From Psammoneis japonica (lineage: Eukaryota): DNA of 64,000 nucleotides. Below the pieces are notes generated by a model, which did no database searches, was not told the DNA's origin, and saw only the letters and a program-made list of their open reading frames with translations. Shown here piece by piece: positions 1 through 45,700 of the stretch (positions are counted from its first letter, which is position 1; every line of letters begins with the position of its first letter). The stretch is from NCBI GenBank assembly GCA_008632985.1, contig QPGO01000143.1, forward strand, positions 1 to 64,000, read 5' to 3'. The translations under genes and the position numbers were made by a program.

Positions 1-1290
1 ATTCTGCCGTGCATTCTGCCGGGAGGAATGAACAGTGGACACACAGTGTGGAATTTTTTAGAAAGTGCCAACAGGAATCTTTTGAAAATGGCCCGTGATT
101 TAAAATGCACAAATTGCTCAAGGACATCTGTAGAATCCACACATTTTTGCACAAAAACTGTTGTCTTCTAAAAACTTGTGCAAAAAAGGACTTGACTGCC
201 AACTGATCAGGCGCGTTTCTGCAAACATGTTGTTCCAAAATGTGCCTGATCAGTTTGCAGTCAAGTTGATTTTTTGGTCTGCACAATTTCTGCGTGTGCC
301 ATTGACAATGATTCTGCAGCACGAAAGATTGCCATTGATGCGGCGTTGACATTTCCACATGCAAGAACTCCAATTTTCAGCAGCAAAATGCTGCTTGGGC
401 AGAATTTTGGCTGCAACGGCACAGCGCATGCTTGGGAATCCCAGGAAACTGCAAAGATGCAGAAAGATGTCACAATCCTGTTGTGATGCAGCATGATTCA
501 CTTCATTTGGGAGCTCTCACAACATTTTTGTTTAGTCACAGAAGCTTCTGAAGACCTTCGAAGATGCTTCAAAGGCAATTTCAAGAATTTCAGTCAAAAA
601 CAAAGATGGTGTCATTTGGCTCAACATTGAAGATGCTTCAAAGTTTCTCCGAAGCTTCTTTGAAGGTCACTTTGCAGCATGCCACAAGCAGCACAATGTC
701 ACATGTTGTCATGTCTTTCTGAAGCACCTCACCCACCCGCCATTTCTTTGCCACAACCTCAGGACCGACTGACGACACAAAGTCACAGGCAAAAGCAATG
801 GATTTGTTGCAACATTGCTTGTCCCGGACAAGATTGCACAGCGGTGATTGAACCCTTTGACAAGTCTGTGGCTGTGCTTTGTGCATGCAGTGGATGTGCT
901 GTGCTGCCACGATGCCTGATGACCTGGCCATGACACGCTCGTTTTCGAAACTCGGCAAAATTCTGTTTTCACCATTTGAAATGAAGGCTTTCAGGGACAG
1001 ACAATGTTGAGTTGTTGCATTGTGCAACACAACAGATGTCTTTGCCTTCAAAGTTTCTGCAAAGAATGGACAATTTTGCCAAAGATTGCATTTCTTTTCA
1101 CCCACAGAAGTCATGAAACGTTTCTTGGAAGTCTTCGAAGCAGATAGAACATGCAGCTTTGTCAAAGATTGAATTTTTTCAATGCACATTTGTATGTCAC
1201 AAAAGATTCTTCGAAGTCATTTTGAAAAATGTCATTTTGAAAACTGTTGTTAATTAAAATTTTCGAAGGAGCAAGGACAGATCCATCCCG
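1..1290. repeat. TpA-depleted degenerate sequence, probably a transposon remnant of unknown class
   Basis: Very few TA dinucleotides; recurring short motifs (gaagatgcttcaaag at ~561 and ~629; cttcgaag); abrupt switch to TA-rich sequence near 1310. Confidence 0.4.
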
Positions 1291-1713
1291 CCCCATGTTG
1301 TGTCGTGCGTAGGGCCTACGTACGTACTTTACGTGGAGCTGTCCCCACAATTTAAAAACGAATAAACGTCCTCAGGTGCAGACATGAAGTAATTTTTCAA
1401 GAACTTGCATGCAATGCATTTTATTAATGCCGGAATTTGAAAATAAAATTTTAATTAGGGAGAAAAAGTGTCCTCACGACTGCATAATAATAATTGCAAT
1501 GGACAGAGCTGACCAAAAGCCGTTGAAAAAATTTCGGGTGTGACACGCTCACAAAAGGCTGCCAACAACGGCATTATTTGATGCCATTGCATATACCGGT
1601 AGGGGTAACTGTCTCAAGCAACAACGAGCAAGATACTGCAGCTACGGTAGAGAACGACGCGACGGCATTAGGCACTGCTATCAAACATAAAGCAACATTT
1701 TTTGCGATTCACC

Positions 1714-3477
1714 ATGCGAGGCTACTTTGCAGCCTCCATAAGCTTTGGTGTTCTCGTTTTTGTCAGCTCTGATCAAGAACCACAAGAAAAAACACCGAGA
1801 GTTCGTCGACGTGATGGCATCATAGAGAAAGCAGTGGATGAATACGCTGAGCGAGACCTTGACACACTGGGTGTAGTAGATCCCGTGGCAAACAACGGGG
1901 TCAAAACTTACAACACTCCAGACTCTGGCTCTTGGCCCTCCTTCAGCGATTGGAATGCGTTAGAGTCTGCCCTTTCAGCAGGTGCTTCACTCGACGGTCC
2001 CTTTATTCGTGGCCAGGGTTGGAAATACTTTTGGGATTGCTCGACGCTTGGTATCAATTCATACTCCATTGCGGCAGGAGGCGATGGCGTTTGCATGCAA
2101 GGTCCGACCTGTGCCCGTGATTTCTGTGATCCCGACGCTGATTATGACCTTCCGGCCTACGTTGCTGACGTGAGGACTCCTCAAGATATAGCCAAGGCTT
2201 TGGAGTTTGCCAACAAACACAACATTGCCGTGTCCGTCAAGACCACGGGTCATTCCCTCACGGGAGCCTCGACAGCTAGAAATTCCTTGTTGATTTGGAT
2301 GCACAACTATCCAAAGAATGGCACCATTGTCAGGGACTACAAGGATTCGTGCGATGATAGCAATACTCACGATGCGGTAGTGGCCATTAATGGAGGTGAG
2401 ACATGGAATGATGTTTTGGAGGCTGTCAAGGGCGAGTATCACATGGTTACTGGTGGTTGTCGCACTGTCTCAGCCGCTGGGGGGTGGCTTCAGGGATGTG
2501 GTCTGTCCCAGTCGAGCCGTACCTATGGCATTGGAATTGACCAAGTGATTGATTTTGACTGTGTGTTGGCAAATGGTACCTTTGTAGAAAAGGTGGATCC
2601 CTGCAATGAGCCCGATCTCTTTTGGGCACTGCGAGGAGGTGGAGGAGGGACCTTTGGAGTCGTGACAAGGATACACTACAAGCTCCACTCCGTGACACCG
2701 GTAACGACACTCAAATGGAGCATGCGTGGATTGCCATGCACGGAACAGGCGGACAGATTCAAACATCGATGGATGGATTACTGGCTTGACATCAGCCCAG
2801 ACCTTGACAATCGGTGGAGTGGCTCATTTGATCCTCAACGCTGTGATCTCACCTTCATGGGAGATCAGGACCAAGCCCGTGAGAGCTTTGTGAATGCTTT
2901 TGATGCGTGGCACGGTGAATCAACTGATACAAGTTTCTTTTCTCCGTTACCAAGCTCAACAATGGAAACATTTGACAACTGGTATGAGTTCATGGGAGGT
3001 GCTGGGGCCTACAACCAGCCGACGATTGCGGAGCTCACGGGGCTTATTTTCTCAGGAGCTCATGAAATGCGTGCTCGACTGGTGCCCCGTGAGGTTGTGA
3101 TTGAACGCAAGGAAGAACTTCTCAACATAATGAAACAGTGGTCAAAGGGTAATTCACATTATGTCAACTACTTTCTTGGTGGAAAGACAAATGAAGTTGC
3201 TGACAATGCAACGGCTGTCAATCCGGCCATGAGAAATGCTGTGTTTCACCTAACGGCTTTTGATCAAGAGACTGGTGACTTGATTCGCAATTTTCTCCCC
3301 AACAACATCACTGGCGTGTCGTTCAATCACCACTACGTCTTGGAACCCAATTGGCGTCGTGCTTTGTGGGGATCAAACTATGACCGCTTGGCGCAGCTCA
3401 AGAAGAAGTACGACCCGAACCATGTCTTTAACTGCTGGCATTGTGTTGGCTACCAAGGAGAAGAGCTGGTGCAGTAA
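1714..3477 (+). CDS. FAD-linked oxidoreductase, berberine-bridge-enzyme/VAO family, with N-terminal hydrophobic segment
   Basis: Uninterrupted ORF (first ATG 1714). FAD-binding motifs VSVKTTGHS, GGWLQGCG and DLFWALRGGGGGTFGVV; C-terminal BBE motif LWGSNYDRLAQLKKKYDPNHVF. Confidence 0.92.
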   Translation: MRGYFAASISFGVLVFVSSDQEPQEKTPRVRRRDGIIEKAVDEYAERDLDTLGVVDPVANNGVKTYNTPDSGSWPSFSDWNALESALSAGASLDGPFIRGQGWKYFWDCSTLGINSYSIAAGGDGVCMQGPTCARDFCDPDADYDLPAYVADVRTPQDIAKALEFANKHNIAVSVKTTGHSLTGASTARNSLLIWMHNYPKNGTIVRDYKDSCDDSNTHDAVVAINGGETWNDVLEAVKGEYHMVTGGCRTVSAAGGWLQGCGLSQSSRTYGIGIDQVIDFDCVLANGTFVEKVDPCNEPDLFWALRGGGGGTFGVVTRIHYKLHSVTPVTTLKWSMRGLPCTEQADRFKHRWMDYWLDISPDLDNRWSGSFDPQRCDLTFMGDQDQARESFVNAFDAWHGESTDTSFFSPLPSSTMETFDNWYEFMGGAGAYNQPTIAELTGLIFSGAHEMRARLVPREVVIERKEELLNIMKQWSKGNSHYVNYFLGGKTNEVADNATAVNPAMRNAVFHLTAFDQETGDLIRNFLPNNITGVSFNHHYVLEPNWRRALWGSNYDRLAQLKKKYDPNHVFNCWHCVGYQGEELVQ

Positions 3478-4271
3478 AGCTACTTGAAGTGCGCTTGTCT
3501 TTGCAACAGACAGTAGAACGACGGAAACGCTACTCTCCATCTTCATTCTGGGGTTGTTGCTTGGGCTTTTTGTGTTCTGTAGTAGTGAAATGGTTAAGCA
3601 AATGATGAAGCTAAAGGAACAAGCAAGAATGCTGCTAGTGCTACAATGATCAAGCATCGCTCCTCGTCGTTTCAAATAAAAGTCCCATGACGGCGTTGTT
3701 TCGGTAGTATGGTCAAAAGAGAGACACACCAGGTCTCCCATCAGCAGACAGCACGAAAACCTTCATAACTACATCGTCCTTTGATGCCATTCTAAAGGTG
3801 TTCTCTTGGTCTCATGTCCCACACATTTTGCTGTACGTTACCTTACCTCCCGGCATGTCTGAGTGGCACAGTTAAGCGGAGCTTTTTCTGCTGCTCAGGT
3901 CTTGTTGGAATTTGTCTTCGGTGATCCCAATGCACCAATTCACGCATGTGAATCCAAAACACTGGGAGCACCCTAGAGTCACAGATGAGGATGCAAAGTC
4001 AAGAACTTGGCATTGCAACAACACAATGTGACAACATGGCTAGAGGGGGGTTGAAGAATGAGTGAGTTCATGGCAAGAGAAGGGAAATTAACCCTGGATT
4101 CAAATGGAGGAGAGTTGCTTCCACAAGCTGAAATCTGGCATTTAACTGGACCAGTTCTTGGAGACAACAAGAGGGGTGACGGATCTTTTTATAAAAAGAA
4201 CAGACACACACAGTTGTGCACTCTCTGCAGACACTAAAACACATTCTTTACATTTTGCATGGCTTGGACAG

Positions 4272-6430
4272 CAATGGCAAGTTGGTCCCTTGATTGATTT
4301 CTCCAAGGGTCTGGACGAGATTCTCAATGATGGCAGCATCATCCTCATTGGTGATGATCACAATGATGGGGCCACCTTCAACCTTGCTGCAATCCTCACT
4401 GTGAATGCTGAAGGCAATGAGCACAAACATCTGCTTCTGGGATTGTCTGGAGCTCACACTTCAACCACTGGCAACACGTTCACAACAGAATTGAATGAGT
4501 GGAAAACATCTCATGCTGGTGGACTCAATTGCGAAAGGTTTGAAGCCATGCCAACAAAGCATGCTAAGAGCAGCCAATGGTCCATCCATGGGATTGACGT
4601 CAAAGACCCCAGTGCAGTCCAAGAAATCCAAAACAAGCATCATGAAACAATCGCCTTTAATCTCTGTCAGTGTTGTCACTCATCTGAGGGCACCATCATG
4701 CCCTGCGGTTCCAGCCATCTCAATGGCGTGAGAGCTTTTAATTGCTCCGGGCTTCATTCCCACTTGGTTTCCCAAGAAAACAGGGAAGCTGTGCTCCACT
4801 GTGATGCTGGCCTGAGGGCCATCAACAAAAATTGCACCAGACATGTCCGCATTGTTGCCATTCTGAAATCATGCATGAGTGCATGCACGTGCGGCATGAA
4901 TCACAATGACCTTGACAAAAAATGATTGAAATGACATGCAAACAAGAGAAAAGCGCAACACAAGAGCTTCATTTTTTAATGATTTGGCTTGTTCATTGAG
5001 AGAGCTCACAAGCCTCAACACATGATTCCCTTGTGTCGATTCTGCCTGTGCCAGAGCAGTGATCACAGGCCTGTTCCTTGCAAGCAACACGGCAATGGCT
5101 CAAATCCACAAATCAACAAGTGCTCTGCTCTGCAATTGTTGTTTCTTGTTTTCATGTTTGATCATCATCAGGTGAAACTTGTGCTCTCCTTGTGCCTTGA
5201 GACTTTTTCGGTCGTGATCTGAAAGTTTGACAAACAGTCGCACTCATGATGAGAAAACCATTCACATGGACATCTCTCACATTCACCCTCCTGCACTCCA
5301 TTTTTCTTCTTCTCCTTCTTCATCTTCTGCAATTGTTCTTTTGTCCCATTTCCCATCAGCTCCTCCATTGTGCCCAACTTGATGCTCATTGTCAGCATTG
5401 TCAAATCATCAATTCCAAGATGCTCTCAGACTCAAGTGAGACTTGTTCTGTGGGACTGCTCCCCCCAGACCAAGCAGGTGCATGACTGCTGGGTCAGAAC
5501 ATGCAGTGAAAAGTGAGGTTTTTTCACAGTTTCCATCCAGCACCCAGTTGCAGAAGTTGCAGCTCTGTCGCTGCACAGATTGCTCAGCGCTGCTCCAGTG
5601 GCACTGGAGCCAAGCCCACTTTTGCACAGCCATGGGTGGGGGCACAGCCTTTGGTGGCCACAAAAAACACAGAAACAACCTCTCCACCACATGGACCACA
5701 AAATGAGAGTTGCCTTGGTTGACTGTGCAGCAACTCATTTGCAGGTTTCAAAGGCCAGGGCACTTTTTTCACAATGCCAAAAGGGCCTGAGGTCAAAAGA
5801 GCACAAAGGCTCCTGAACCCCCAATTGTGCGGGTGCACCTGTGAGTTGCTCCGCTCCCAGCATTTGTGGCTGGAGCACAAAACAGCAGGTTTCCAGTGTG
5901 CTGCACAAACATTTTCATTTTCCTGCTGCTGCTGTCATCCAGTGCACATGCCTCCTGATGCCAGGGTGGAGCTGCAAGAGGATCTTCAACAGCGGCATGT
6001 GCTTTCTCTCAGAGGGAGGGCACCCTCTGGGACCAAACCTTCTTGGATGATTGCTGGGCCAGGCTTGCATTCTAGAACACAAGACTGAGAGCCAACAACA
6101 AGGTGGGTTGGATGGGGCTGCCATTGGACAGAGAAAACAGCTGTTTTCAACACTGCAAAAATGTTTTTCAGTCTGTTCATCTTTCTGCATGTGGGGATTG
6201 CAACTTGTTGGAATGAAGACAGCTGACATGCCTCCAGCAACTGCAACAATGATGTGACCCATTGTTGTTGAGAGAGGGTGATTTCAGATTGCAGATTGCA
6301 TTTGAAGGTGTTGGCTATAATCACCTCCTCCTTGTGTGACACTGTGTGCATTTCTACAAGATGATGGCTTTTGTCAACAAGTGACACACCTTTTGCTGTG
6401 ACCGGAGCAACATTTTTGAAAGATTTTGAA
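4272..6430 (+). repeat. Copy A of a ~2.2 kb direct repeat (partner 15212-17450), heavily TpA/CpG-mutated
   Basis: Colinear from 'caagttggtccct' to 'accggagc.acatttttgaaagattt.gaa'; differences are dominated by TA>TG/CA and CG>TG/CA. Confidence 0.93.
4290..4925 (+). pseudogene. Hypermutated copy of the 15199-15852 ORF
   Basis: All 10 Tyr of the partner ORF are Cys (8) or His (2) here, e.g. NLYQYYRL -> NLCQCCHS. Confidence 0.88.
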
Positions 6431-9400
6431 CATGAAGTTAGCACTGCAATTGGAGTGAGATGTCCACTGATGAGTGCTGTGTCATCAAGTTTTGAGCACC
6501 ATCAATGACATCACTCAGAAACAGACCCCCAATGGGCAGAAGAATCCATCTCTCTGGGGAGAGCTCTCCCAACTGATTCCATCACCATGGAGCTTCCTGA
6601 ACCACCAAATTTCCCTGACAATGCCTGTGTTCATGGCAGTGCTCCAGCCTTGCAGTCTCAAGCCAAGCAAACATGGCAGCATCATTTGAAACCACCAAAG
6701 CTCCCAACTTACCTTGACGGTGACAGCCCAGCCAAGCAGCCAGGAAACCCAAGATCCAACTTCTGACTCTGGCCAATGCTTGATGCACCTGATCCCCCAT
6801 GGTGGACAGACCAATTTCCATGAGGGATGCTTGTGTTGCTGGAGCCCCAATCACAAATTCAGAACCTGCCCACATTGCACCAGTCCAAAAGCAGTTGACA
6901 TCTTTCAAGAAAACCCCAGTCTTGTGTGATGCAAGACTGGTGACCACAACAAGAGCTTGGAACATTGCCCCCACCTCCTCCTGTGATGCCTGCCCCAAGC
7001 CTGATGCAGCAAGCACTTGCCACCACCTTGGTGGATGCACCAAGGGCTTTTTCTCCTTTGAGTGAAATGATTTTGCATGATGGACAACTGCATCATTTGT
7101 GCAATGCTTGCAACATTTTGGCATTGTGGTCTCTTTGTCATGACACATGCAGGTGGCATTGTGATTGTGTCATTGATGCAGGCAATGTCAGCATTTGGTG
7201 TTGGAGCAGCTGGTCATTCAGTCGGTGGCAATGTGTTGGTGTGAGTGGAGTTGCAGTTGGAGCAGGCTGCACTGGGCGGGTGTCTGTGCAGGACTTGGGG
7301 TGGCATCACAGGTGGTGCCATTGATGGCCTCATGGACACAGGCAGTGCCACAGTCTTTGGCATTGGAGTGGCTGGCAATTCAGTCTGTGGAGTTGGAGTT
7401 GGCCAGGTGGCATTTGCGTTGGCGCAAGTGGCATCGCAGTTAGAGCAGGCAGTGCCGGGTGGGTGTCTGTGTGAGATGCGCATGGAATGGCTTGGCAGCC
7501 CTGCAGCAGCCTGTGGTTGCATTTGGAGCTTGGAGCTGCCAACTGACACTTTGACTGACCCACATTGTGAACACCTGGCTTTCATCACTCATTTTGGAAT
7601 TTTGGCCAAGGTTGAGAAGATTGTGCTGTTCAAAAATCTGTGACATCAACCCTTTGAATGGAAGAGCCAGGTGGAAAAGCTCTGCCAAGGGGCCAGAGCC
7701 ATGCACACCAACCCATTTAAAGTGAGCACATGCGCCCAGTCAAATCCAAGAAGAGGGGACGCATTGGCTGCACTCCTGACACATGCACCAAAGATGTGAT
7801 CCACAATTTAGTTGTCCATGCACAAGCACAAGAACAGTGCAACTGATGTGACAAAAGAAGAGCAAGGCACTCAACTGTGCAGCTGCATGGCAATGGGATC
7901 AAAGCAATGGCAATGGCCATGGCAATTCAAAAACAATGCAAAGTCACAGACACAGCATCAGGAAGAGGTCACAACAAACATGGTGGCTAGAAGCTGTGGT
8001 GTCTGAAGCTGGGTGAGCTCTCAAGATGGCTCAGATCCATCACAGCATGTTTTTGACAAGAGTTCTTTCCACATCTGTGTGGCAAGTCCAGTGCAGAGTT
8101 TGATTTGGCAGACCAGTGCATCATGACAGTTCTGAGGGTGCAGATTGCTTCTTTTGGCTGCAAAGTGGTTCACAACCTGGAAATCAATGACTCACTTGCC
8201 TCACTGTCAGCCAGCACCGCAAATTTAGAGAGTGAAAGTTGGGGAAGATGGATCATTTTGTCAAGTCTCAAAAGTGGCTCAAGAGTGTGAGCCAACAAGA
8301 AGAGTTGGCTGCACAATTCATCATGAAAGTGCAGAGTTCATTGTGTTGGAGCATGGTGTCTCCATTGTCATTCTAGAGCAAACAGCAGATGGCATTGATT
8401 TGGCTGTTCAGCAAACTTGTGTGTGCCTTGACAACTGGTTGCACCACATTCGGAGATTGTGCTGGAATGATGAAAAAGTCAACTTGTGCTTGCATTGTTC
8501 AATCATGGGAAAAAAGCCATTGGCTTTCCTTGGCCCTTTTGGAGCAATTGGGCAGCATGTGAAAGAGGAGCTGCAGAAAGACATGGACAGTGCCATTTTG
8601 ATGCATTGTCATCATGAGTTGTGAGCCATGAGCCATGCATGATGGAGTGCCATGCTTTTAAAATGCAGAGTTCAAGAGCCTGTGCAGAGTGGAAGGGAAC
8701 AGCCAAAGGAGGCACAGAAGTGGCTGCAGTGACAGCAGAGCCGAGTGGGCACAAAACGCAGGATGCAGGGTGTTCGGCAGGGGGATGAGGGGGCAGGGAG
8801 AGAGAAAGTGATTTGGAGAGTGTGCATGGAGAGGTGAAGAACAATGTTGCAGCTAAGAGAGCTTGGATGGCCCATTGAGAAGGAAAGGCAGTGTGACATG
8901 TGCTGCCAAAGCAATCAGTGGACAGGCGGTGCCATGCAAAGTCAGCAGATGGGAGGAGGGCAGATGGAGATGACAGGGCACAGAGAAAGGTGGAGTGGGA
9001 GGCATCGGAGTGGCAAAGGTTGGATGAGGAGGACCAGGGAGGTTTGGGTTGAGAGCAGATGGAGGAAAATGTAGAGCCAAAGAGAAAGCAGTGAGCAAAA
9101 AATCTGAGGCCAAGATGATCAATGGCAAAAGGGAGAAGGAAGATGCCGTCATTGTTGAGTGAAGCAACAACTGGGGATCCATCAGCAGAGGAAGCAGAGG
9201 GGCTAAGAAACCAACTTCAATCTCACACTCAAATGGTGCACCTCAGCAAACCACATGGTGGGGGGCAGAACAGAGCTCCTTGTGAGCAGAGAAGGAGAGT
9301 TCATGGTGGCAAGAGGCTCAAAAAGGTGGAGGGGTGGACACAAGGGAGTGAAGCCATTGAGAAGAAGAGCACCAATCACCAACATCATGAAGGGAACAGA

Positions 9401-12400
9401 GAACAATGTCAATGTTGAGGGCAGAACGGGGAGCAAAGTGCCTGTTTTGCAAATGATTGAGAAGATGCACAGAAGAGAGATGGGCACATTGGCTGTGACA
9501 GCAATGTCTGCAGACATGCAAACCAGCGGCATCAAAGAATGCAGCAGGTGCTTGAGAAAAAGAGAAACGAGGGTGCTCCTGGCAAAGGTGGCTGTGTGCA
9601 GCAGCAGGAAGAGAGGAAGCATTTGCAGATGGAGGAGACCAGGAGCAAAAGGGACAGGCCAGCAGGGCACAGGTTTCAGTGGGTTCCACAATGTGATGGT
9701 GTTGGGGGGTGAGTCAAAGTCAGGGGCTGCAGTCCAGACAGCAGCTTTGCACAGGGGGCATCCAGTCAGAGAGGTGAGCTGGGCACCAACAAGTGCCAAC
9801 AAAGGCATTGAGGGCATCCAGGAGTTCCATCTTGTGCTGGGACTGCTGAGGAGTGACAGAGTTGTCAGACTCAGTCTGAGAGATTCATCAGGAATGTCAG
9901 CTGGCTGTGCGGGAGCGTCAGGAGAGGGATGGGGGCACTTGAAGAGAGGGGGCTCAGCAGTCAGAGAGCGGGTGTGCAGGCAAAGGCTCGGAGGAGGCCC
10001 ATTGGCAGGAAGTGGGTCTTGGGGTTCACGAAGCTGCCAGTCCTGAGCAAGCAGCTCAAGAGCATGGACAGCAGGAAAAGAAGTTGCATGAAGGGGCAGG
10101 CAGCTGAAGAGTGGCAGAGGCATGGGACCAGGAAACTGCATCATCATTGAGGGAAGCATCCAATGCAGAAGAGAGGAGATTGGAGGGAAAGCCAGGACAG
10201 TTGTGCAAGTTGGCATCCAAAAGGGCAATTGCACACAGAGATGGGAAGAAAAGAAGCTTGTGCTTGATTGGAAGGGCATTGCAAGCAGAGAAGATGGGAA
10301 TTAGAGACCAAAGGTTTGAAGCAGAGAGAAGGTGGTTGATGCCAGGCTGGGTCAGGGGAAGCTTGAGATGGTCAGAGACAACCACAACCATGTTGTTTTG
10401 ATGGGAGACAAGTTTGGAGAGAGAGCATTGCAGGTCGCAGAGAAGTTGGTGGGAGCTGGGAAGGGGATGACAGTGGTGGAAGTGCACAAAATAGAAAATG
10501 GAGCAGGCGGAGCATTGGGCGGGTTGGCAACATGAAGAGGGGGCACTCCAGATGGCATTGAAGGCTGCAGAGACATGGAAAACCTGGAGAGCATGGTGAC
10601 ATGTCTCTCAGCAGAGTTGGCAGGACACTGAGATGGCCAAATGCCAATGACATTGAGAAAGGAAGAGCAGTTTTGGAAGGACTGATGGATGGGGTTGGTG
10701 GTGGCACTGGAGATTCTGCCAACAAGAAAAGAGTGAAGGTGAGACAAGAGAAACTCACAGGTGCAGCAAGAAGTGCCACAAAGGGCAGGGGTTGGGCCAG
10801 CAAGAATGCCACGAGCCTTGTCAAAGGAGCCACAGGCAGGGATCATAAAGGTGCAGTGTTGAGCCCAAGGATTGTCCACAATGGGGGTCGGCAAAAAGTC
10901 AGGATGAAGGAAGTTGGAGAAGGAGCTGGTGGAGCAAAATGCAGCAAAGTGGGATGTGGGATGAAGGTGCCACTTTTGAAGGAGAAAGGAAAGCACTTGG
11001 CTGCAGAAGGAGAGAAAATCAAAAGTGGAACCTTCAGGCGTCACTGGATGGAAGGTGGCATGGAAGCAGGAGGCCCACTGGCTTTGATGAGGACAAGAGC
11101 ATTTCTTGGTCTGAGAGAGCATCACAGAGCCAAGCGCAAAGAGAAGTGGAGAGACACACTTGTCATGATGTTGCAGCATCTTGAGGACAATGTCACGAAT
11201 GACATCAGAAGCAAGAGCTGTGGCAGGCACATCAGGAGGATCAGTGGGACAAAGGACCTGAGCCAGAAGCTTGACGTTGGCCAAAGGGGAGGAAGCAGAA
11301 GCAGTCATGGCAGAAAGCAAAAGAGAAAAAGATGACAACTTGCAGAGAGTTGTTGTTGTGAGCGAATTGCCAAAAACAGCAAGGGGCCCACAGGAATCAA
11401 GTGGGGACACAACATGAAGGGTGGCAGGAAGGAAGCAAATGTGCAAAGCAATTCATGAAGCGGCATGGGAAGACAGGAAGAAAGCAGGTGGAGGCGTGAC
11501 ACAGGCAGCTGCATTTGGAGACACATGGGAAGGTGCACAGAAATGTGGGAAAGTGACCACAATGGAAGAAGGTGCAAAGGGAGTCATGGATGGAAAAGGG
11601 CAGGCAGCAGAAAGGGTGGGAGGAGAAACTGACACAAGCAAATGATTGGTTGAGGAAAGCCGTCAGGATGGGAGACAGGAAGAGCTGCAGAAAGGCAGAG
11701 AAGCAATCATGTCCAAAGACACGAAAGAAGTTGGGGATGGGAAAAGGGCAGTGGGAAGGACAGAAGGGGAGGCTGGCAAGAGCAACTGATTGGTTGAGGA
11801 AAGTGGATGGGGCAGAATGGATGGAAAGATTGCAATTGTGGAAACCGGGGGTCAGCGGCCAGCACAAAGGGCAGATGTGTTCCAGTCCCAGGTGATGCAC
11901 AAAACAACAATCAATTTTGAATGTAAATCATGTGTCTCTTGTGCATGGAGCATTTGCATGTAAAATGCTTGAGCAGATGTGCTTTTGCAGGTGTCTGGAG
12001 CATGCACATTTAATTGGTTTTTTTGTTGGCATGCAAGTTCTCATGGGATGTGTGACACAAACTCCCTCAGCAGACTCAGTGCTGATTGTGTGTCAGCACA
12101 TTGCACACAGAGATTTGTCTGCAGGTGGAAACAATGCCAGACAGCATTGCAGAAAAAGTGCTCATGTTGACATCAAAATGACAGCAACAATTTTGCCGAA
12201 AATCATCCGTTGTGTGGCAACTCATTTGTTGCAACAAAAAACATGGATTGCACGAAAACAATGGCATTGCAACACTGACACGAGTCTTGTCAGTGTTGCA
12301 AAACATTCAAATTTGAATGGGTCTGTGCTTTTGGTGGAGAAAGCTTGATCGCAAGTCAGAGACCACGCAAAAATTGTGCAAATGTTATTCTTGTGCATGA

Positions 12401-14410
12401 TTTGGTTCACATGCGGCTGGAACACATCGGCACAGAAGTGTGCAGACAGAAGGAATGAAGGAAGCGAGCAAAAGGAGATGAAAAGGGGCAATGGCAATGG
12501 CAACAGCAACAAGAAAAAGGAGCTGCAAAAAGAAAGATGGCCATGACGGAGGGTCAGGAGGCCACTTTGGGAGGTGCAGCAAAGAGCTGCCACATCCAAA
12601 AAGGAGTGCCATTGCTGCACACATCACAATCATCATTGGTTTCATTTGTTGCAGCGGCTGCTGTTTTTGCACTCATGGCTGTCTGTGTGTGCCACACAGG
12701 AATGAGAAATGTGCGTGCTTGGCTGTCGTGCACATCTGTCACATGTCACATCTATGCCAAATCTTGGTGACAACGCCATTTGGCATTTGGCTCATTGAAC
12801 AAAAACCACCACAGCCACGCACTTTTCCCATGCTTCCTTTCTCTCCAAGCGACACTTTTTTGACACTTGAAGCTGGTCGCCGCAAGAATCTTGGGGACAA
12901 ACACTGCCAATCCCCACTCACATGCTTCTTGCAAGTCACCAACTCTTTTCTTGGCAAGTGCCTCTTCTACATTTGCTGTGCTTTCCCACCAAATCTTGTC
13001 AGCAGCCACTGCATCACTCCGTTTCCTTTTCTTTCCTTTCCCTTTGCCACGGCTTTCTTTTTTGATCCTTTTTTGTTCAACAATCTTCTTCTTTTCAATT
13101 TCTTTTGCATCATCCTCTGGCAGCCATGTGTCATCATCTTCTCCTTCGTTGTCATCAACAAAATCAAATGTGCCCACTTTCCTTCTTGCTGCTGCCTTGC
13201 GTTCCACCTTTGCACCATCACACACCCAACACAATTTCACTCTGTCCACACCACATGGCTGCTGTGCAAAACACTTCCTGCATTTCCAAGTTTTTCCTTC
13301 ACCTTTTTCAGCACTGTTCACTGTCACATTCTTCACATCAACTCCTTTCTTGAGTGCACTTTCCATTCTCTTTATTTGCATTTTGGTTCTCAACTTCTTC
13401 CTCTTTGAAGCCACCTCTTGCCAATGTTGACGCATCTTGAATTTTGCTCTGACATGTTTTGACATTTGCTTCAAATCAAACACAGGCAAAACTGATGGCA
13501 CTCCAAACACAATGGGCTTGTTCCATCCTTCTGCAAATGTTTGAACTCTGTCATGCAATGACGCCGCATCACTCTAAACAGGATGCAAAAAATGGGCACC
13601 ACCGGAGTCAGAGCTGATCGGACCACCTTCCTTTCTTCCCGCTCTCTCTCTCTCTCTTTTGCTCCTTTTTCAATCTCTCAATTTCTTCACAATTCTTTCT
13701 TTCCTCCCTTCCTCTCTTCTTGTCCTTCTCTCCCTCGTTTCGTCCATCTCTGTTGTTTTCCATCACATCGTCATCAGAAACACTGCTCCTGGTTTGTTTT
13801 GGAAACACTCCAGTGCTTTGCTTTTGAAACACTCCAAAACTTCCTGCCATCATTTTTGCGATCACTTGCATGTGCACATCATTCATTGTGATGCCCCTGC
13901 CCTTGAGTGCTTTTGCAACAGTGCTCTTCCACTGTGAAAATGAACATGTCTGCGACACTCCCAATGTCTTTTCTGCATGGCTCCCATTTGAACATCCCCT
14001 TTCCCAATGTTTTTTCTCCCCTTTGTTTCTTTTTTTTTGCCAGCTGCGCCACTTTGACGTGCAGCACATTTTCTTTGTTCTCCCCCCTTTCATTGCTTTG
14101 ACTGATGCATCTCCATTGCCCCATGACCATCACCTGTGACACCGCCAACCAACAATCATCTCGCCCATGTTTCTGGACATCTCTTCTCACCGATCATGCA
14201 TCTTGCCCCCTGCAACACTGCCGCCCAATCCCCAATTTTCCTCCTCCCGCATCCATGGCCGTCGAAGAAGTCTGCCATCCTGCACATCTAATCTGTCACA
14301 TCTTCTGTGCTGTGCACTGCCTTCTGTACCTGCCCACCTGCAGCACCCATGTCCTGTGCACTCACGTAGAATCAGCACTGGAGCCCACTGAGCATGCTGC
14401 AGATCGAAGC
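6431..14410. mobile_element. Long TpA/CpG-depleted tract of degenerate repeat/TE and gene remnants, unclassifiable
   Basis: Near absence of TA. Internal duplications (7200-7290 vs 7362-7475; gattggttgaggaaag at ~11644 and ~11788). A Lys/Asp/Glu-rich remnant ORF at 12752-13558 (-). No convincing domain recognised. Confidence 0.45.
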
Positions 14411-15198
14411 ACACGTCACGCGTAGTCGTAGATAGTCGTACATACAGTACCAGTAGTCGTGGCATTGATCGTAGACTGAATGACCTGGTAGTCTATCTAC
14501 TGTACGTACAGTACAGTACCTTCCGCTCTCAGAGGCCCATCTATCCTTTGCTTTCCTCTCTCACATCACAATTCACAGCACAGGCGCTACAGACGCCATA
14601 TGGGGCTACGACTAGCATAAAATGCAATATGATATAATCATTGACATATAAAAAACATTAATATGATTTATTAATGACGTATATACAAGAATGTTGAATG
14701 ACTGCATATGACTTTTTGTGTAAGATTTGTACTGTTCTACGCACTTAACGAACAAAATGCTGAGGCAATACATAGAATGACTCTTCTTAAGTACGAATTC
14801 AAATGAAGGTCATGCCCTCGCCCGCCACGCCATTTAATCAAACATACGAGCATATATGAAGTATTATTCAAAGACGGAGTTGACAAACGGATATCGACGG
14901 TTGAATGTGTAACAACTACAAAAACATCTAAATATAGTTGAAAAGTATGGACTTTTGTGAGACATTTGTATATCTAACACATGTAAAACCTGCTATTTGT
15001 TTTGGCAAGAACCGTTATCGTTAAATAAAGGGATACATAAAATCCAATACAAAATGTCTGACCGGTATAACAGGTACGTTTATGCTAGTCGTAGCCTCAT
15101 ACGTACGAGTAAGTAGGGAAAAGTATCTTGTGCCCGGTGCCCGGGATCTCCTTTTTATTTTTGATCGAGCATAAATTTGCTTCAAAGAAGAACACAAA

Positions 15199-15852
15199 AT
15201 GCCCGAGATTCAAATGACAAGTTGGTCCCTTGATTTCTCCAAGGGTCTGGACGAGATTCTCAACGACGGCGGCATCGTCCTCATTGGCGATGATCATAAC
15301 GATGGGGCCGCCTTCGATCTCGCTACGAACCTCATTGTGAACGCTGAAGGCAATGAGCATAAATATCTGCTAGTAGAATTGTCTGGAGCTCGCGCTTCGA
15401 CCACTGATAACGCATTCACAGAATTGAATGAGTGGAAAACATCTCACGCTGGCGGATTCAATTACGAAAGGTTCGAAGCTATGTTGAAGCGCGCTAAGAG
15501 TAGCCAATGGTCCATCCGCGGGATCGACATCAAAGACCCCAGTACAGTCCAAGGAATCCAAAAAAAGCGTCAAGAAACAATCGCCTTCAATCTCTATCAG
15601 TACTATCGCTTATCCCAGGGCGCCATTGTGCCCTACGGTTCCGGTCATCTCAAAGGCGTGAGAGCTTCTAATTACTCCGGGCTTCATTCCTACTTGGTTT
15701 CCCACGACAACAGGGAAGCTGTACTCCAATACGATGCCGACCTGAGTGCCATCAACGAAAATTATACCAGGCGTGTCCGCGTTGTCGCCATTCCGAAATC
15801 GTGCATGAATGCACGCACGTGCGGGGTGAATCACGACGACCTCAATAAATAA
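15199..15852 (+). CDS. Hypothetical 217-aa protein, possibly TIKI/TraB/EreA/ChaN-superfamily-like, inside the 2.2 kb repeat
   Basis: Normal-composition ORF; IVLIGDDH and PYGSGHL resemble the superfamily's GExH and VGxxH motifs (family call tentative). Confidence 0.5.
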   Translation: MPEIQMTSWSLDFSKGLDEILNDGGIVLIGDDHNDGAAFDLATNLIVNAEGNEHKYLLVELSGARASTTDNAFTELNEWKTSHAGGFNYERFEAMLKRAKSSQWSIRGIDIKDPSTVQGIQKKRQETIAFNLYQYYRLSQGAIVPYGSGHLKGVRASNYSGLHSYLVSHDNREAVLQYDADLSAINENYTRRVRVVAIPKSCMNARTCGVNHDDLNK

Positions 15853-17450
15853 TAGTTATATGACATGCACCCAAGAGAATGAAAAGCGTAACATGAGAGT
15901 ATCATTTTTTAACCATTTATCGGCTTGTTCATCCAGGGAGCTCGTAAGCCTGAACGCATGATTCCCTTACATCGACTCTACTAGAGCAGTGATTAAAGGC
16001 CTGTTCCTTGCAAGCAAAACTGCAATTTCTCGAATCCAATTGTTAGCCACGAATCAACGAGCGCTCCTCAATCGTTGTTTCTTGTTTTCGTATTTGATCG
16101 TCATCAGGTGAAACTTGCGCTCTCCTTACACTTGTAGACTTTTTCGTGCTCTGAAAGTTCAATGAACAGTCGCATTCATGATGAGAAATCCATTCACACG
16201 GACATCTCTCGCATTTACCCTCCCGCACTCCGTTTTTCTTCTTCTTCTTCTTCTTCTTCTTCTTCTGTAATTGTCCTTTCGTTCCATTCCCCGTCAGCAC
16301 CCCTGTTGCCCTGCTTGATGCACGTCAGCATTGTCAAACCAGCAATTCCAAGATGCTCTCATCAGACTCGCACAAGACTTGTTCTGGGACTGCTCCCTGG
16401 ACCAAAAAGATGCATGACTGGAACACAGAACATGCAGTGAAAAGTGAGGGTTTTGTCATAATTTCTGTCTGGCACCCAGTTGCAGAAGTTGCAACTGTTG
16501 CTGTGTAGATTGCTTGGTGCTGCTCCAGCAGTGCCAGCCAGCTCTAGCCAGAGCCCACTTTTGCACAGTCACGCGGGGGGGGGCACAGCTGCTGCTCCTG
16601 TCTGCAAAAACAAATCACAAAAAAAACCTCTCCACCGCCACATGGGCCACAAAATGGGAGTTGTCTCAGTCAACTGTGCAGGAACTCATTTGCAGTTTTC
16701 AAATGTTGGGCCACTTTTTTCACAATGCCAAAAAAGCTTGATGTCAAAATGGCGGAGGCTCCTCAGCCCTGAGCCCCCCAAATGGCATGCACTGCCTGCG
16801 AGTTGCTCCGCCATCAGCATTTGTGGGTGGCCGGGGCACAAAACAGCAGGTTTCCAATGTGCTGCATGAAGATTGTCATTTGATGTTGTCATCCAACACA
16901 CACCTCCTGACACAGTGGAGAGCTGCAAGGACCCTCAGCAGGGAGGCGTGCTCGCTCTTTCTCATCTCAGACGGTGGGCACCTTCTGCTGGGACTGGGAC
17001 CCAACCTTCTTGGATGATTGCTGGGTCAGGCCTGCATTCTAGAATGTAAGACTGAGAGCCAATGAGGTGGATTGGATGGGGCTGCCGTTGGACAGAACAA
17101 CAGCCACTTCCAAGTTGCACGCAGCCACGAGGAGTGTGCTTTGAAAACAAGCAGGGGCATGTCTGGCTCCCCAAGCTGCTGCAAAAATGTTTTTTCAGTC
17201 TGTTCATCCTTCTGCATGTGGATTGTAACTTTATAGAATGAAGAAGCTGACATGCCATCAGCAACTGCATCAGTGATGTGACCCATTGTCATTGCAAAAA
17301 GAGGGCGCGCGAGGGCATTCGATGGTGCTGGCGCTAATCTGAAATCACCTCCTCCTCGTATGACATTGTGTACATTTCTACATAATGGTGTCCTTTGTCA
17401 CTAAGTAAAATTTTGCTATGACCGGAGCGACATTTTTGAAAGATTTCGAA
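15212..17450 (+). repeat. Copy B of the ~2.2 kb direct repeat; ends unmutated, centre (~16300-17290) TpA-depleted
   Basis: Alignment with 4272-6430. Confidence 0.93.
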
Positions 17451-17601
17451 GCACTCGGGTGACGGCATCACGGCAACACTGAACACAATACGCACTCCAT
17501 AGCCCTACCTACCTCTAGAGAGCCTTACTCCATTCGAAAGGATCTCTCATGGAGCGGAACACCTATCTGCAAGCCCAAAACTCAGGCAAAAACAATCGAC
17601 A

Positions 17602-18867
17602 ATGACAACGCCATTCAGTGAAGGACAACAGGCAGCCCTGGCGATCGTTCCTGTATTTACAGGCCTTTTATCCGCCACTGGTTCCGCGAGCATCATTTAC
17701 ATTATTCTCGTCGACAGAAAAGAGAAGCTCCAGCGGACATACCACAGATTGCTGTTCGGTATGAGTATATCCGACGTTCTCAACAGTGTACGAGCCTCTT
17801 TAAGTGGCTTTCTCATGCCATCGGACACACCCGGTGTCTGGAGTGGAGCCGTTGGAAACCAAGCAACTTGTGAAGCTTTGGGCTTTTTCTCCCAACTGGG
17901 ATTTGCTACAACCGTATACTCGGGGAGTCTCGCCGTCTACTTTTTGCTGCAAATCACGGATAAAAGAGTGACGAAACTCAAGGCATGGATTGAACCGCTC
18001 ATGCATGGTCTACCCTCTGTCTTTGCGTTGTCTACATCATTTCTTGGTCTCGCCTTCAACCTCTACAATCCAGTCCCTTTGGGTATGGGTTGTTGGGTCA
18101 GCGCTTATCCAACAGGTTGTGCCGACGCTGGTTCTACCGTTGAGTGCACTCGAGGAGAGAATGCTGACTTTCTTGTATGGGTGTTTGGTGGGATCGTCAT
18201 TGTAATTGTCTTGATTCTGGTGGTCTTTTGCATGGCATACATTTACGTGACTGTCCGGAAACAGACGAAACTAGTTGAGAGACGATACTCTATGGTGAGG
18301 AGCCAGAACTCGAGGTGTTCAGCTACCATTCGACTAAAGCAGATGTCCCAACAAGCTTGGCTTTATATTGGTGCATTTTTGATGACCTACGTTTGGCCAT
18401 GTACTCTTCGGTTGATGGAGAACGATGGGAAAAGCCGGAGCTTTTTTGTGGTTTCGCTGTTTTCTGCAATATTTTATCCTCTTCAGGGTTTCATGAACTT
18501 TTTCATTTACGTCCGACCACGGTATCGGGAACTTCGTCCTCGATATCCCACTGAATCAGGCTTTCGAGTCCTTCTCCATATTTTCGCTCGCCCCGATACG
18601 TCGCGAGGGAATTCCGGCGATGGTGCCTCCACTAGTCTTCGTCGGCCAAAAGCTTCTTCTAGCCGCACAACGTCGACTGCCATCCACACAGGCTCGTTGG
18701 TGCCCAAAGCAAGTCCTAACATGGATTCGGAGTGGCACTTGTCAGTTTCTACCACGAGCGAAACACCACCGGAGCAAGCTTCCGCAAAATCGGACGAAAG
18801 ATCTGATTTTGACATTGTTGGTTCTCCTGCTGGTTCTGCAAACTCGTCTCAAGAAGATGAAAACTAG
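17602..18867 (+). CDS. 7-transmembrane GPCR-like protein (cAMP-receptor/Git3-like class)
   Basis: Seven hydrophobic segments; YHRLLFGMSISD, TCEALGF, GCWV, FYPLQGFMNFFIYVRP; Ser-rich tail. Confidence 0.9.
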   Translation: MTTPFSEGQQAALAIVPVFTGLLSATGSASIIYIILVDRKEKLQRTYHRLLFGMSISDVLNSVRASLSGFLMPSDTPGVWSGAVGNQATCEALGFFSQLGFATTVYSGSLAVYFLLQITDKRVTKLKAWIEPLMHGLPSVFALSTSFLGLAFNLYNPVPLGMGCWVSAYPTGCADAGSTVECTRGENADFLVWVFGGIVIVIVLILVVFCMAYIYVTVRKQTKLVERRYSMVRSQNSRCSATIRLKQMSQQAWLYIGAFLMTYVWPCTLRLMENDGKSRSFFVVSLFSAIFYPLQGFMNFFIYVRPRYRELRPRYPTESGFRVLLHIFARPDTSRGNSGDGASTSLRRPKASSSRTTSTAIHTGSLVPKASPNMDSEWHLSVSTTSETPPEQASAKSDERSDFDIVGSPAGSANSSQEDEN

Positions 18868-19138
18868 ACTATCTATATTGATTCAGAGAGCTGTACGGCG
18901 CATGTGAATCTATCGCAAAGCCACTTTCTCGCAACAACGTGCACTGCTGTGATTGCTAATAGGTGGAGTAGGAAACGACCGGCAAAGAGTAGCAGCATCC
19001 CAAGCCAAAAAAATTGCGACATCAACCGATAACAAATTAATCTGTAATCCTCGTGGAAGCAAGCACGAAAACTATCCTTTTGGCTTCGACTGCCTCTTGA
19101 ATGTGTTCTGGACACTGATTAACATGTCAATTTGCTCT

Positions 19139-20020
19139 TTACCATCCTTTCCTTTCAATCGACTTCTCTATCGTCTTGAACCCATCGGGATCAATCGTAG
19201 TAACGGCAACCTCCACGGTCCCATCCTCCTTTATTGCCTTTTCTGTGGTCTTTTCCGTCATCTTCTTGGATCCAACTTTTTCGGAACTGTTAAGGGCATC
19301 ACTGGACAGCTGTTCCAGTTTCCGGCGCAGCGCCTTTACAGAAGCAGTGTCCCTGGGCTTGACCTCTAGACAGCTCCTGTGATTGTGTTCTTGGGGGTTG
19401 CCTCGCTTTTGCGGATTCCAAAACAATTGCCATTCTCCACCTGTCTTCTGGCCATGACAGCACCCTCCAGAGCAGTGCCTCCAAACAAGTCCTTGGCAAC
19501 GGCACAGCTGAGGTCTCTGCCGACTCCACGGTTGCCATTGCACACAGCAAGATCCAGTTCTCCTGTCTGATGGGACCTGCTGCGGCCAACACACTGCACC
19601 TCCCAACTTGATGACCTGCCATTCCTGCAAACGTCTCCAAGGTGGAATTGTCCATGAGGAGAATGAGAATGTTGGCCAGTTGAGTGCCTGCAACAAATCC
19701 TCCTCTCACCCCACCCATTCCCACATGGCAGAGGGATCAGACCCACTTGCATTGTCATTGCACTTCATGAGGACCCCTGTGGTCCCCATGTTGCCTGTGA
19801 AGATGAAACCCTCCCACCTTGACATTCTGGATGAGGACAATGCAACATCAGCTTTGGACATTTGCAAGAAGTGCAGAAGGAGAGAAATCAGCAATTTTGG
19901 TTGTGAGAAGCAAGCAAACTCATGGGTCACCAAGAGTTGCTGGGGGTCAAGCACCTGCATCAACACATGGTTGGTGTTGTCAATCATTCCTTGCATGTTG
20001 GCACCCGTTGCTCTTGTCAC
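19139..20020 (-). pseudogene. Inverted, degraded paralog of the Ysc84/SYLF gene at 36805-37725
   Basis: MQGMIDNTNHVL, MGMGGVRGGFVAGTQLANILILLMD and KTIEKSIERKG match the + copy. The intron is retained, there are frameshifts, and homology extends into the 3' flank (18920 ~ 37950). Confidence 0.88.
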
Positions 20021-21446
20021 TTGCTTGTGTCTTAAAATTGCAATGCCATCGCATCTTGCAGATGGAACTCTGAGGCAAGTTGCACTGTGAATGGTGTGAA
20101 AAGTGAAAACCAAGTCAGAACATGGGTGAGAGAGCTCCCAACATGGGAGGTCCTGCATCCTGCTGCACAAGAGCAAAGACAGTGTGTTTTGTTTGGATTT
20201 GAGGTTTGAGGACAAGCAGGAGGTTGCACCAGTGCCACAGTTGTTCTGGCCAAGGGTTTCAAATTGGGGGGGGGGGGCACTTGCCAAGCATCTTGTCAAT
20301 GACTTCTTCATGCTGTTGAATCAGCCAGGTCTCTGCACTGTCCAAACCATCTTGGTGCATGGCATCTGGTGAGGATGGAGATGTTTGGGGTTCAACTGAG
20401 TCCACACACATGGTTTTTTTTCATGCGGGGCACCCCTTCATGCAATTGATTGTCCCAGACTTTTGCTTCTTGTGAGGAAGAGCTGCACAGGTTGCAACAA
20501 GCTTGCACAATGCATTTGTGCAACATCATGTTTTCATGCAGCCCATTTGTCATTGCAGTTGCTGCCACTGCCAAAAACAAAGCAATTTTGTGATGGGTGG
20601 GGACAAGGGCATGCCAAATCATGAAGTCACTCAGTGTTGCAGTCATTTAAAAGCAGAAAAAGTTGACCAGATGTCAAGGAGTGCAAAAAACAATTTTTCT
20701 AAAGTCTGCAATGACCAAATTACAAAAACACTGGGGTGAGTGGGAGGTCAAAGATTCCAGTGCAGTGGCAACAAAGCTGAGAGCCTTGGCAAAGAAGTGT
20801 CATCACAAAAAATGCAAGGTTCCTAAATTTTTCACTGAACGTCCTGCTTCTTGTTGACAAGTGGTGTTTGACAAGTGGCTGGACATTGTCAAGAAAATTT
20901 TGGCACCTGAGACTCAACATTGCTGGCAAAAAGTTGCTGCAGCTGTGCAGCCAACTGGCACATGCAGTGCTGTTGGTGGAGAAAATGAAAGACATGCTTG
21001 CAGAGTGATGTTGAAAGAGAAGGATGAATGCTGGCAGTGAGTGGTTTCTGTGGAAGGCAGGGTTCTGCAGAGTGAGTGCTGCCAGCTGCTGCAGCAACAC
21101 TTCTTGAAGATGAAGCCAACAACAAAATGCCAGCCTTGCAGCTTTAGAATTGCCAGGGAAGTTGAACAGCATGGCAAGATGCTGTTGAGCTCACAGCAAA
21201 CTTCTCAAGAGTGCTCTTTTCAACAAAAGATTTTTGCCTTGCATTTGACCCCCAACATTGCCAGAAGAGCTGACACACAGGGTTGGTGCAAAGTTGGTTG
21301 CTGAGAGCAGGAAAAAGAGCCTTGTTTGTGTCCATTGTTCTGCAAAACTCTTTGCACACAAGAAAGAGGCCACAGAGCCAGAGTGAAAGAAGAGGAGCAG
21401 AGGTTCACTGTGCAGAAATCACAACTCAAAATGTGCCTTGGAGCCT

Positions 21447-21750: not shown

Positions 21751-21809
21751 CGATATATATCGACAGTTTGTGGCAACACTACATTCGAGAGTAGTAAGTG
21801 AGAGAAGCG

Positions 21810-27787: not shown

Positions 27788-29836
<2,049 letters not shown>

Positions 29837-45656: not shown

Positions 45657-45659
<3 letters not shown>

Positions 45660-45700
<41 letters not shown>

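Follow-up and report, generated by a model that had tools for sequence, protein, structure and literature searches.

TpA-directed A:T to G:C hypermutation with slower CpG decay as the probable cause of degeneration in a gene duplicate in a 64-kb stretch of Psammoneis japonica DNA

A 64-kb stretch of Psammoneis japonica DNA (positions 1 to 64,000 of contig QPGO01000143.1, assembly GCA_008632985.1; hereafter the window) carries an intact gene, copy B, together with a degenerate duplicate, copy A, from which almost all TpA and most CpG dinucleotides have disappeared. We consider it probable, at roughly 0.8, that the changes in copy A were made by a DNA hypermutation that converts A:T to G:C at TpA, accompanied by a slower decay of CpG, in silenced tracts. 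The evidence comes from comparison of copy A with its partner and with outside homologs, from the two long terminal repeats (LTRs) of a retrotransposon in the same window, from three further pairs of duplicated segments, and from TpA-poor tracts that together occupy half of the window.

Self-BLAST of the window identifies copies A and B as a direct duplication in the same orientation, in two blocks (4273-6141 against 15213-17104, 78.0% identical over 1951 nt, and 6153-6430 against 17179-17450, 77.5% over 289 nt; overall identity about 78%). Copy B (15213-17450, + strand) is of parental type and comprises an intact open reading frame (ORF) of 217 aa (15199-15852, + strand, with its ATG at 15199, in an open frame of 15175-15852) and 3' flank. 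Judged from its sequence, copy A (4273-6430, + strand) is a dead duplicate derived from this gene, i.e. a truncated pseudogene: homology to B begins 14 nt past B's ATG, so that the 5' end of the gene is missing, and the frame is shifted by a 4-nt insertion. An earlier note on this DNA had described a duplicated gene; the duplication stands, but copy A is not a second gene. A frame of 259 codons, stop to stop, nevertheless stays open across its start (4146-4925, + strand), because the process removes TAA and TAG and B contains no CGA codon that could become TGA. In a global alignment the two copies agree at 1753 positions, differ at 330 (231 of them by transition, 99 by transversion) and are gapped in 232 columns. 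Transitions of all four kinds occur in nearly equal number (from A to B, 61 T>C, 61 A>G, 56 C>T and 53 G>A), and the background divergence unrelated to TpA or CpG is about 8%.

Fifty-six TpA dinucleotides of copy B can be aligned with copy A, where 21 read TG, 21 read CA, five remain TA and nine show other states; change in the opposite direction is seen at two sites. For the 84 aligned CpG dinucleotides of copy B the corresponding states in copy A are 33 TG, 34 CA and 15 retained, against four sites in the opposite direction, i.e. CpG loss is symmetric, as for deamination of 5-methylcytosine (5mC). Copy A is left with 8 TpA in 2159 nt (observed/expected ratio, O/E, 0.05) and 23 CpG (O/E 0.19), with TG and CA both near 1.8, and copy B holds 60 TpA (O/E 0.40) and 93 CpG (O/E 0.71). 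The equality of TG and CA outcomes agrees with the statement of the earlier note that A>G and T>C are interspersed and that both DNA strands were mutated, there being no single-strand bias, and the CpG loss that it ascribed to copy A is evident in the same counts. All 10 Tyr codons of copy B are TAY, and their counterparts in copy A are eight TGY (Cys) and two CAY (His), as had been noticed beforehand in stretches that we find at about 15591 in B and 4661 in A. Seven of the eight CGN Arg codons of B are likewise changed in A (six to His, one to Cys), whilst the four AGR Arg codons all still encode Arg.

The direction of these changes is fixed by homologs, as the earlier note had proposed it should be. 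Three relatives of the B product, 65, 60 and 49% identical to it, were found in a large protein collection and used as the outgroup. Tyr is invariant in all three at six of the 10 positions, is present in two of three at two positions and in one of three at one, and is unconserved at one; at none of the 10 does any relative carry the residue of copy A, although in one of them position 56 (His in A) is occupied by Cys and position 136 (Cys in A) by His. Six family-invariant Arg residues are encoded by CGN in B, five of which are His in A and one of which is retained, and copy A is altered overall at 27 of 86 family-invariant positions. The homologs match the Tyr and Arg of B, not the Cys and His of A, which identifies A as the mutated copy.

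At 22 sites one copy reads TG and the other CA, with every other doublet type at five or fewer, and mismatches lie next to one another more often than in shuffled alignments (73 adjacent A/B mismatches compared with 50.9 +/- 6.0 in 2000 shuffles, maximum 70), indicating that the same ancestral TpA or CpG was lost independently in each copy. Nineteen of the 22 lie downstream of the B ORF, in a part of copy B that is itself depleted (16301-17200; TpA O/E 0.10, CpG 0.25). The B ORF keeps TpA and CpG even in codon phases where many changes would be silent (10/4/11 TpA and 8/5/36 CpG by phase), from which it follows that the ORF stands outside the process and is not merely protected by selection.

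A Copia-type LTR retrotransposon at 21447-27224 (+ strand), with an open frame of 1751 codons, LTRs of 304 nt and the 6-nt sequence GAGCCT on both flanks, provides a second replicate pair. Its 5' LTR (21447-21750, + strand) is unedited, with 14 TpA and 17 CpG, whereas in the edited 3' LTR (26921-27224, + strand) 12 of the 14 TpA have changed, the two survivors both being TTAG. All 14 mismatches between the LTRs are transitions: 12 are TpA in the 5' LTR against six TG and six CA in the 3' LTR, one involves CpG and one is of another kind, and 17 of 18 CpG positions are common to both. Since LTRs are identical at integration and the 3' LTR alone is edited, the change arose in DNA after integration. 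That 12 of 14 TpA but only one of 18 CpG differ between the LTRs further establishes that TpA erasure is separate from CpG decay and precedes it. On a rough, indirect contrast (12 of 14 TpA against one other mismatch in about 240 remaining positions), TpA change is faster than background substitution by, very roughly, two orders of magnitude or more. The flanks of the element are homologous to a contiguous empty-site paralog (35332-35954 and 35968-36218), by comparison with which the Copia element is inserted into an already purged repeat.

In three further pairs the loss falls on the copy that lies in a tract. An edited duplicate of the Ysc84 gene region (18905-20110, - strand; intact partner 36699-37962, holding the Ysc84 ORF at 36980-37492) has lost 22 TpA and 37 CpG and has 10 discordant sites; its single Tyr has become Cys and one CGA has become TGA. 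This duplicate also records a gradient at the tract edge, with 11 TpA edited and 13 kept up to 19340, and 11 edited and one kept beyond. The segment 20419-20737, compared with 34701-35009, has lost 5 TpA and 13 CpG, and 45941-46124, compared with 51063-51249, 8 TpA and 5 CpG. Across the five pairs the TG:CA outcomes are 21:21, 6:6, 9:13, 2:3 and 3:5, i.e. both strands are hit, and change is near-exclusively A>G/T>C on TpA both in the LTR pair (12 of 14 mismatches) and in A/B (42 of 56 TpA).

To delimit the affected DNA, tracts were called with a two-state hidden Markov model (HMM) on TpA counts per 100 nt. Ten TpA-poor segments, totalling 32.1 of 64 kb, have TpA O/E values of 0.04-0.16; the O/E of TG and CA is about 1.6-2.0 in eight clear segments and about 1.2-1.5 in two doubtful ones, and in 1-kb windows TpA and CpG O/E are both 0.0-0.2 over long stretches. 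The window thus contains discrete regions of TpA depletion with CpA/TpG excess. Copy A lies at the margin of a 10-kb tract (4301-14300; 32 TpA, O/E 0.05; CpG O/E 0.18) whose left edge and the first base of copy A are no more than about 25-50 nt apart. The other clear tracts, besides that in the 3' flank of B, are 1-1100 (TpA O/E 0.06, CpG 0.44), 19401-21600 (which takes in the edited Ysc84 copy as well as the DNA flanking the Copia insertion on its left), a young tract at 26801-29089 (TpA O/E 0.05 and CpG 0.70 for the HMM segment 26801-29600), 34901-36400 (the paralog of the Copia flanks), a 10.6-kb tract at 40001-50600 (CpG O/E 0.05-0.24 at 40-46 kb and 0.38-0.69 at 46-51 kb) and 55601-57400 (both O/E values 0.07). 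The doubtful segments are 24801-25700, inside Copia (TpA O/E 0.16, CpG 1.05), and 51801-52100. Internal editing of Copia at 24801-25700 was suspected and left undecided; the segment encodes a linker of acidic, low-complexity sequence and is followed closely by an unaltered YVDD motif.

Tract edges are sharp and independent of repeat edges, the tracts running over element boundaries into flanks and non-retroelement DNA. The intervening DNA at 14301-16300, including non-coding AT-rich sequence upstream of B (14400-15198), has a normal TpA O/E of 0.80. Every CpG-poor segment is TpA-poor as well, but the converse fails (26801-29600), and this nesting, together with the LTR pair, bears out the earlier proposal that loss of CpG is a later stage. 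TG and CA counts are near-equal inside the tracts with a single exception, the TG excess in 26801-29600 (459 against 208); this was considered as strand-biased editing and rejected, its source being a perfect (GT)241 microsatellite at 29090-29571, which runs up to a lone N (29572) on the right-hand margin of the young TpA-purged tract.

A Pfam scan covered 121 of the 146 stop-to-stop ORFs of at least 110 aa; the other 25 either were scanned separately or overlap a separately scanned frame, the Copia frame or another long one. The recognisable genes in normal DNA are an FAD/BBE oxidase, a formate/nitrite transporter, Ysc84, a sulfotransferase, a leucine-rich repeat (LRR) protein and an SNF2/RING helicase. 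Within the tracts the scan recognises only a gypsy-type remnant (48196-50603; RVT_1, RNase H and integrase), in the younger part of the 40001-50600 tract, and a DUF6824 frame (27779-28858; 360 codons, E 4.7e-13) that is Cys/His-rich, with almost no TpA and near-normal CpG. The latter resembles a pseudogene that was edited only recently, although gene-finding software would take it to be intact; as a third polarisation test it (queried as 27788-28858) yielded no homolog at E<=1e-5 among 2215 candidates. The ORFs scanned in the 6.4-14.3 kb part of the large tract match no protein family, and their translations resemble composition artefacts. The targets seen are a Copia LTR, the remains of a gypsy element and a duplicated copy of gene B, which has a relative in bacteria; gene B itself, intact and of that same origin, is spared, however, and most of the tract DNA defies identification.

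The specificity extends beyond the dinucleotide. Amongst 87 polarised TpA events pooled over the five pairs, the edited A is followed on its 3' side by C in 40, by T in 26, by G in 12 and by A in 9, and at sites with a 3' pyrimidine on one strand only it is that strand which is edited, in 53 cases against 16 (binomial p = 9e-6). The TpA that survive tell the same story in reverse. In the eight clear tracts, with the two doubtful ones and the microsatellite counted as normal DNA, 73 of 117 surviving TpA are YTAR and two are RTAY, as compared with 204 and 377, respectively, of 1316 in normal DNA (chi-square 160, p = 2e-35), giving survival ratios of 0.36 for YTAR and 0.005 for RTAY. The motif attacked is thus 5'-T[A]Y-3', taken along a single strand. 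A Tyr codon (TAY) offers such a process its best target on the sense strand, which explains both why 10 of 10 were hit in copy A and why Cys (eight) outnumbers His (two). Bacterial TadA deaminates adenine in the T-A-C context of the tRNA-Arg anticodon loop, a parallel that we treat as a lead and not as a test. The low share of 3' G sets the process apart from ADAR, which prefers a 3' G.

Read-derived contigs bear on both the reality and the recency of these changes. The stretch was found in the sequencing runs of one study only, none of them listed as RNA. Contigs of one run, X1, are k-mer contigs built independently of the assembly, possibly from reads of the same sample; one of them covers copy A over 2208 nt (4298-6505) with nine differences and four gaps, and other tract pieces are reproduced with no differences. 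Contigs of a second run, X2, cover ORF-bearing pieces only (9 of 30 bins, e.g. 15219-15888 and 17540-19113) and look transcriptome-like, their library type not being on record; over the B ORF (15219-15888, 670 nt) X2 shows no differences, and it has no contig over copy A, which we do not count as evidence of silence. The window and the read-derived contigs differ at 206 positions, 40 of which are listed. Among these 40, 23 oppose TA or CG to TG/CA: eight have TA in the window and TG/CA in the contig, all at 17916-19201, a tract edge, and six the reverse; six have TG/CA in the window and CG in the contig, four of them within copy A, and three the reverse. One contig over copy A retains four CpG and one TpA that are gone from the window. 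The eight X1 TG/CA sites at 17916-19201 lie within or just after a 454-codon frame (17503-18864); X2 agrees with the assembly at six of them and gives no cover at 19198 and 19201, and the variants may belong to another haplotype, one whose purged tract extends deeper into the gene.

Several other explanations were weighed against hypermutation at TpA. A-to-I editing of double-stranded RNA by an ADAR-type enzyme, fixed by reverse transcription, would account for the 5' neighbour, in that a 5' U/T preference is typical of ADAR according to a preprint discussed below (10.64898/2026.01.13.699255), and several of the targets are retroelements. Its products should be strand-biased, whereas TG and CA outcomes are equal (21:21 and 6:6), one LTR alone is edited in an integrated element, the tracts extend past elements into flanks and into DNA other than retroelements, and the edited A is seldom followed by G (12 of 87), the base that ADAR prefers there; the case that the earlier note made against it is upheld by strand equality and single-LTR editing, and we regard it as very improbable. 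We hold it equally improbable that the pattern is an artefact of assembly or base-calling, i.e. of methylated C and A miscalled in long reads. Modified bases do cause systematic consensus errors in some long-read assemblies, and the sequencing platform is not on record here, but the X1 contigs reproduce copy A and other tract segments, as described above, and the changes behave as evolutionary ones, with TG/CA discordance between old paralogs, background divergence of about 8%, a frameshift and a truncation. Least credible of all is a reversal of polarity, in which a RIP-like (repeat-induced point mutation) C>T change at CpA/TpG would have made the TpA of copy B and of the 5' LTR from an original TpA-free state. 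CpA>TpA is described as the classical RIP signature and duplicated DNA is involved; against this, the homologs (49-65% identical) match B, with Tyr in three of three at six of the 10 positions and Arg at the six invariant ones, B is intact while A is altered at 27 of 86 invariant positions, and it is implausible that an original sequence held as few as 8 TpA over 2159 nt, or 32 over 10 kb.

Two further readings accept that the change occurred in DNA. Under a genome-wide neutral bias, unconstrained DNA would drift to an equilibrium free of TpA and CpG whilst selection kept TpA in genes, and indeed the tracts are mostly non-coding or degenerate and the normal segments mostly genic. The non-coding DNA upstream of B (14400-15198) is nevertheless TpA-rich, the B ORF, codon phase 1-2 aside, still holds 15 TpA and 41 CpG in two phases where many changes would be silent, the two LTRs of one element differ completely, and the tract edges are sharp; we accord this explanation little probability. 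The alternative with the most to commend it, although still unlikely, is error-prone patch repair, whereby T:G mismatches in methylated tracts are repaired by a polymerase-eta-like enzyme that puts G opposite T after T, such that TpA erodes and most CpG is restored. TpA erasure and CpG decay do share the same tracts, and the 5' T requirement fits WA>WG, the hotspot of polymerase eta in somatic hypermutation. Somatic hypermutation at A:T, however, yields many transversions, whereas the TpA of B show 42 transitions against nine other states (a background level) and the LTR mismatches are transitions in 14 of 14 cases; moreover, a 3'-base effect of roughly 70-fold is not known for that polymerase, and in the young LTR 12 TpA were hit while the CpG stayed all but complete.

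We accordingly favour TpA-directed hypermutation, for which the following scheme may be proposed. Copy A is a dead-on-arrival duplicate at the edge of a 10-kb domain under region-targeted DNA hypermutation. The process causes G to be read in place of the A of 5'-T-A-Y-3' on one or the other strand, and TpA is thereby turned into TpG or CpA. In the same domains CpG changes to TpG/CpA more slowly, most likely by 5mC deamination in silenced, methylated DNA. The domains appear to cover transposon remnants, pseudogenes and flanks and to spare expressed-looking genes, and the net result would be permanent inactivation of silenced or foreign DNA. The agent may be a DNA adenine deaminase of TadA/ADAT-like type, targeting may follow chromatin state, and the role may be one of defence.

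A number of points weigh against this scheme or its parts. No deaminase domain was found by Pfam among the 121 scanned ORFs of the window, and A>G on one strand is indistinguishable from T>C on the other, so that adenine deamination is only the most economical chemistry. The sparing of the 5' LTR next to an edited 3' LTR is unexplained. On the side of method, the emission rates of the HMM were chosen and not fitted, and the normal DNA of the survivor test is mostly coding, an imperfect proxy for the context before editing. The read-derived variants may be near-identical paralogs rather than alleles. Finally, the assignment to a diatom-like lineage stands on one protein, the formate/nitrite transporter, whose best match is at 68% and whose named eukaryotic matches, at 45-56% identity, are all diatoms (Amphora 56%, Epithemia 47% and Nitzschia 45%).

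The closest described counterpart is found in the chlorarachniophyte Bigelowiella natans, for which Mettrop et al. (2026; bioRxiv 10.64898/2026.01.13.699255) report that 231 of 302 nuclear mutations in mutation-accumulation lines fell within two integrated viral regions, and that 20 mutations in the virophage region and 210 of 211 in the nucleocytoplasmic large DNA virus (NCLDV) region were A>G/T>C, all on TpA. According to the same preprint, 124 TpA-depleted clusters occur genome-wide, in about 95 Mb of DNA, TpA-depleted coding sequences are enriched for reverse transcriptase and DDE domains, and an ADAT2-like DNA adenine deaminase is proposed as the agent (10.64898/2026.01.13.699255). The likeness to the present window lies in A>G/T>C change on TpA only, giving TpG or CpA according to strand, in discrete regions with TpA depletion and CpA/TpG excess. 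The differences, as far as the preprint's text goes, concern lineage (chlorarachniophyte there, diatom-like here), intensity (TpA O/E 0.45 in its NCLDV region against about 0.05 here; 124 clusters in about 95 Mb against half of the window) and targets (viral regions there; LTR elements, pseudogenes and flanks here, with no viral genes seen). CpG decay is coupled to the process here and CpG is absent from the preprint's text, and the 3'-pyrimidine rule has no equivalent in that text, which does not mention the 3' neighbour. In a full-text literature search for TpA-directed hypermutation in diatoms no report was found, this preprint being the only match. We regard the window as a further case of the process seen in B. 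natans, from a different, diatom-like lineage and much denser, which adds new constraints: the change follows integration, affects both strands alike, obeys the T-A-Y rule, removes TpA ahead of CpG and is graded at tract edges.

To our knowledge, programmed mutagenesis of silenced eukaryotic DNA is almost unknown apart from fungal RIP, which likewise is irreversible, transition-only and dinucleotide-specific, ruins duplicated or mobile DNA and skews dinucleotide indices. The chemistry is opposite, however, with A:T>G:C at TpA here and C:G>T:A at CpA in RIP, and the outgroups show the direction opposite to that of RIP; RIP creates stop codons, whereas the process here removes TAA and TAG. RIP also mutates both copies of a duplication, whereas here one copy per duplicate and one of two LTRs is hit, with the B ORF and the 5' LTR untouched, so that duplication is not the evident trigger. 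Animal ADAR hyper-editing and APOBEC activity share clustered deaminase-type transitions, a neighbour-base preference and mobile-element targets, but act on RNA or reverse-transcription intermediates with strand bias, unlike the present changes, which affect both strands after integration, include flanks and disfavour 3' G. Deamination of 5mC resembles the CpG component, a symmetric CpG>TpG/CpA decay confined to transposon-rich tracts; it explains that half only, as it cannot yield the faster and earlier change of TpA to TpG/CpA. Methylation of CpG in LTR elements has been reported for the diatom Phaeodactylum (PMC2806351), which supports this view of the CpG decay.

A saturated footprint over half of a 64-kb window from a diatom-like genome suggests that the process occurs in a wider range of lineages, and on a far greater scale, than the B. 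natans report implies. The LTR pair, the gene/pseudogene pairs and the empty-site paralog serve as natural experiments that fix direction, strand symmetry and timing relative to CpG decay, and the T-A-Y rule is a requirement that any candidate enzyme must reproduce. In tracts without TAA or TAG, spurious ORFs of great length arise in every frame and dead genes look intact, which misleads gene prediction and transposon dating. A wider reading, for which we would give slightly less than even odds, is that diatoms and chlorarachniophytes possess a system, directed by chromatin domain, in which a DNA adenine deaminase recognises 5'-T-A-Y-3' on single strands, an old and widespread counterpart, in the stramenopile-alveolate-Rhizaria (SAR) lineage, of fungal RIP with opposite chemistry, which would still be active here and shape a large share of the genome. 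The suggestion of continuing activity derives from the partly edited tract edges and from read-derived contigs that differ from the assembly at exactly such sites. The putative enzyme, a natural, context-specific DNA adenine deaminase compatible with double strands, would if real be of interest for base editing.

Some further features of the window may be recorded. The product of gene B, like that of copy A, matches no Pfam family at E<=1, a profile of the gene B family finds no PDB sequence at E<=1, and the AlphaFold model of the B product is poor (mean predicted local distance difference test score, pLDDT, 51.5). The only genomic relative of gene B that was located is on a contig of a bacterial metagenome-assembled genome (L001:2373-5304), directly downstream of an Hcp (type VI secretion) gene; beyond it are a second Hcp gene and a 208-aa ORF, with HlyD, a metal-dependent hydrolase and ThiF nearby. 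This setting raises the possibility that gene B is, by descent, a transferred bacterial Hcp-linked gene of effector or immunity type.

Tracts 4301-14300 and 40001-50600 contain many overlapping ORFs of 110-366 codons in six frames, TGA being the sole remaining stop. Within the first of these, 8001-12000 has a purine excess on the + strand (GC skew 0.31-0.39, AT skew 0.20-0.34) that no repeat or protein family explains. Summed X1 contig depth reaches about 480-4860 at 7336-8669, 11338-12671 and 14673-15339, compared with about 50-60 elsewhere, pointing to high-copy repeats, and many skipping joints occur in X1 contigs at 11909-12399.

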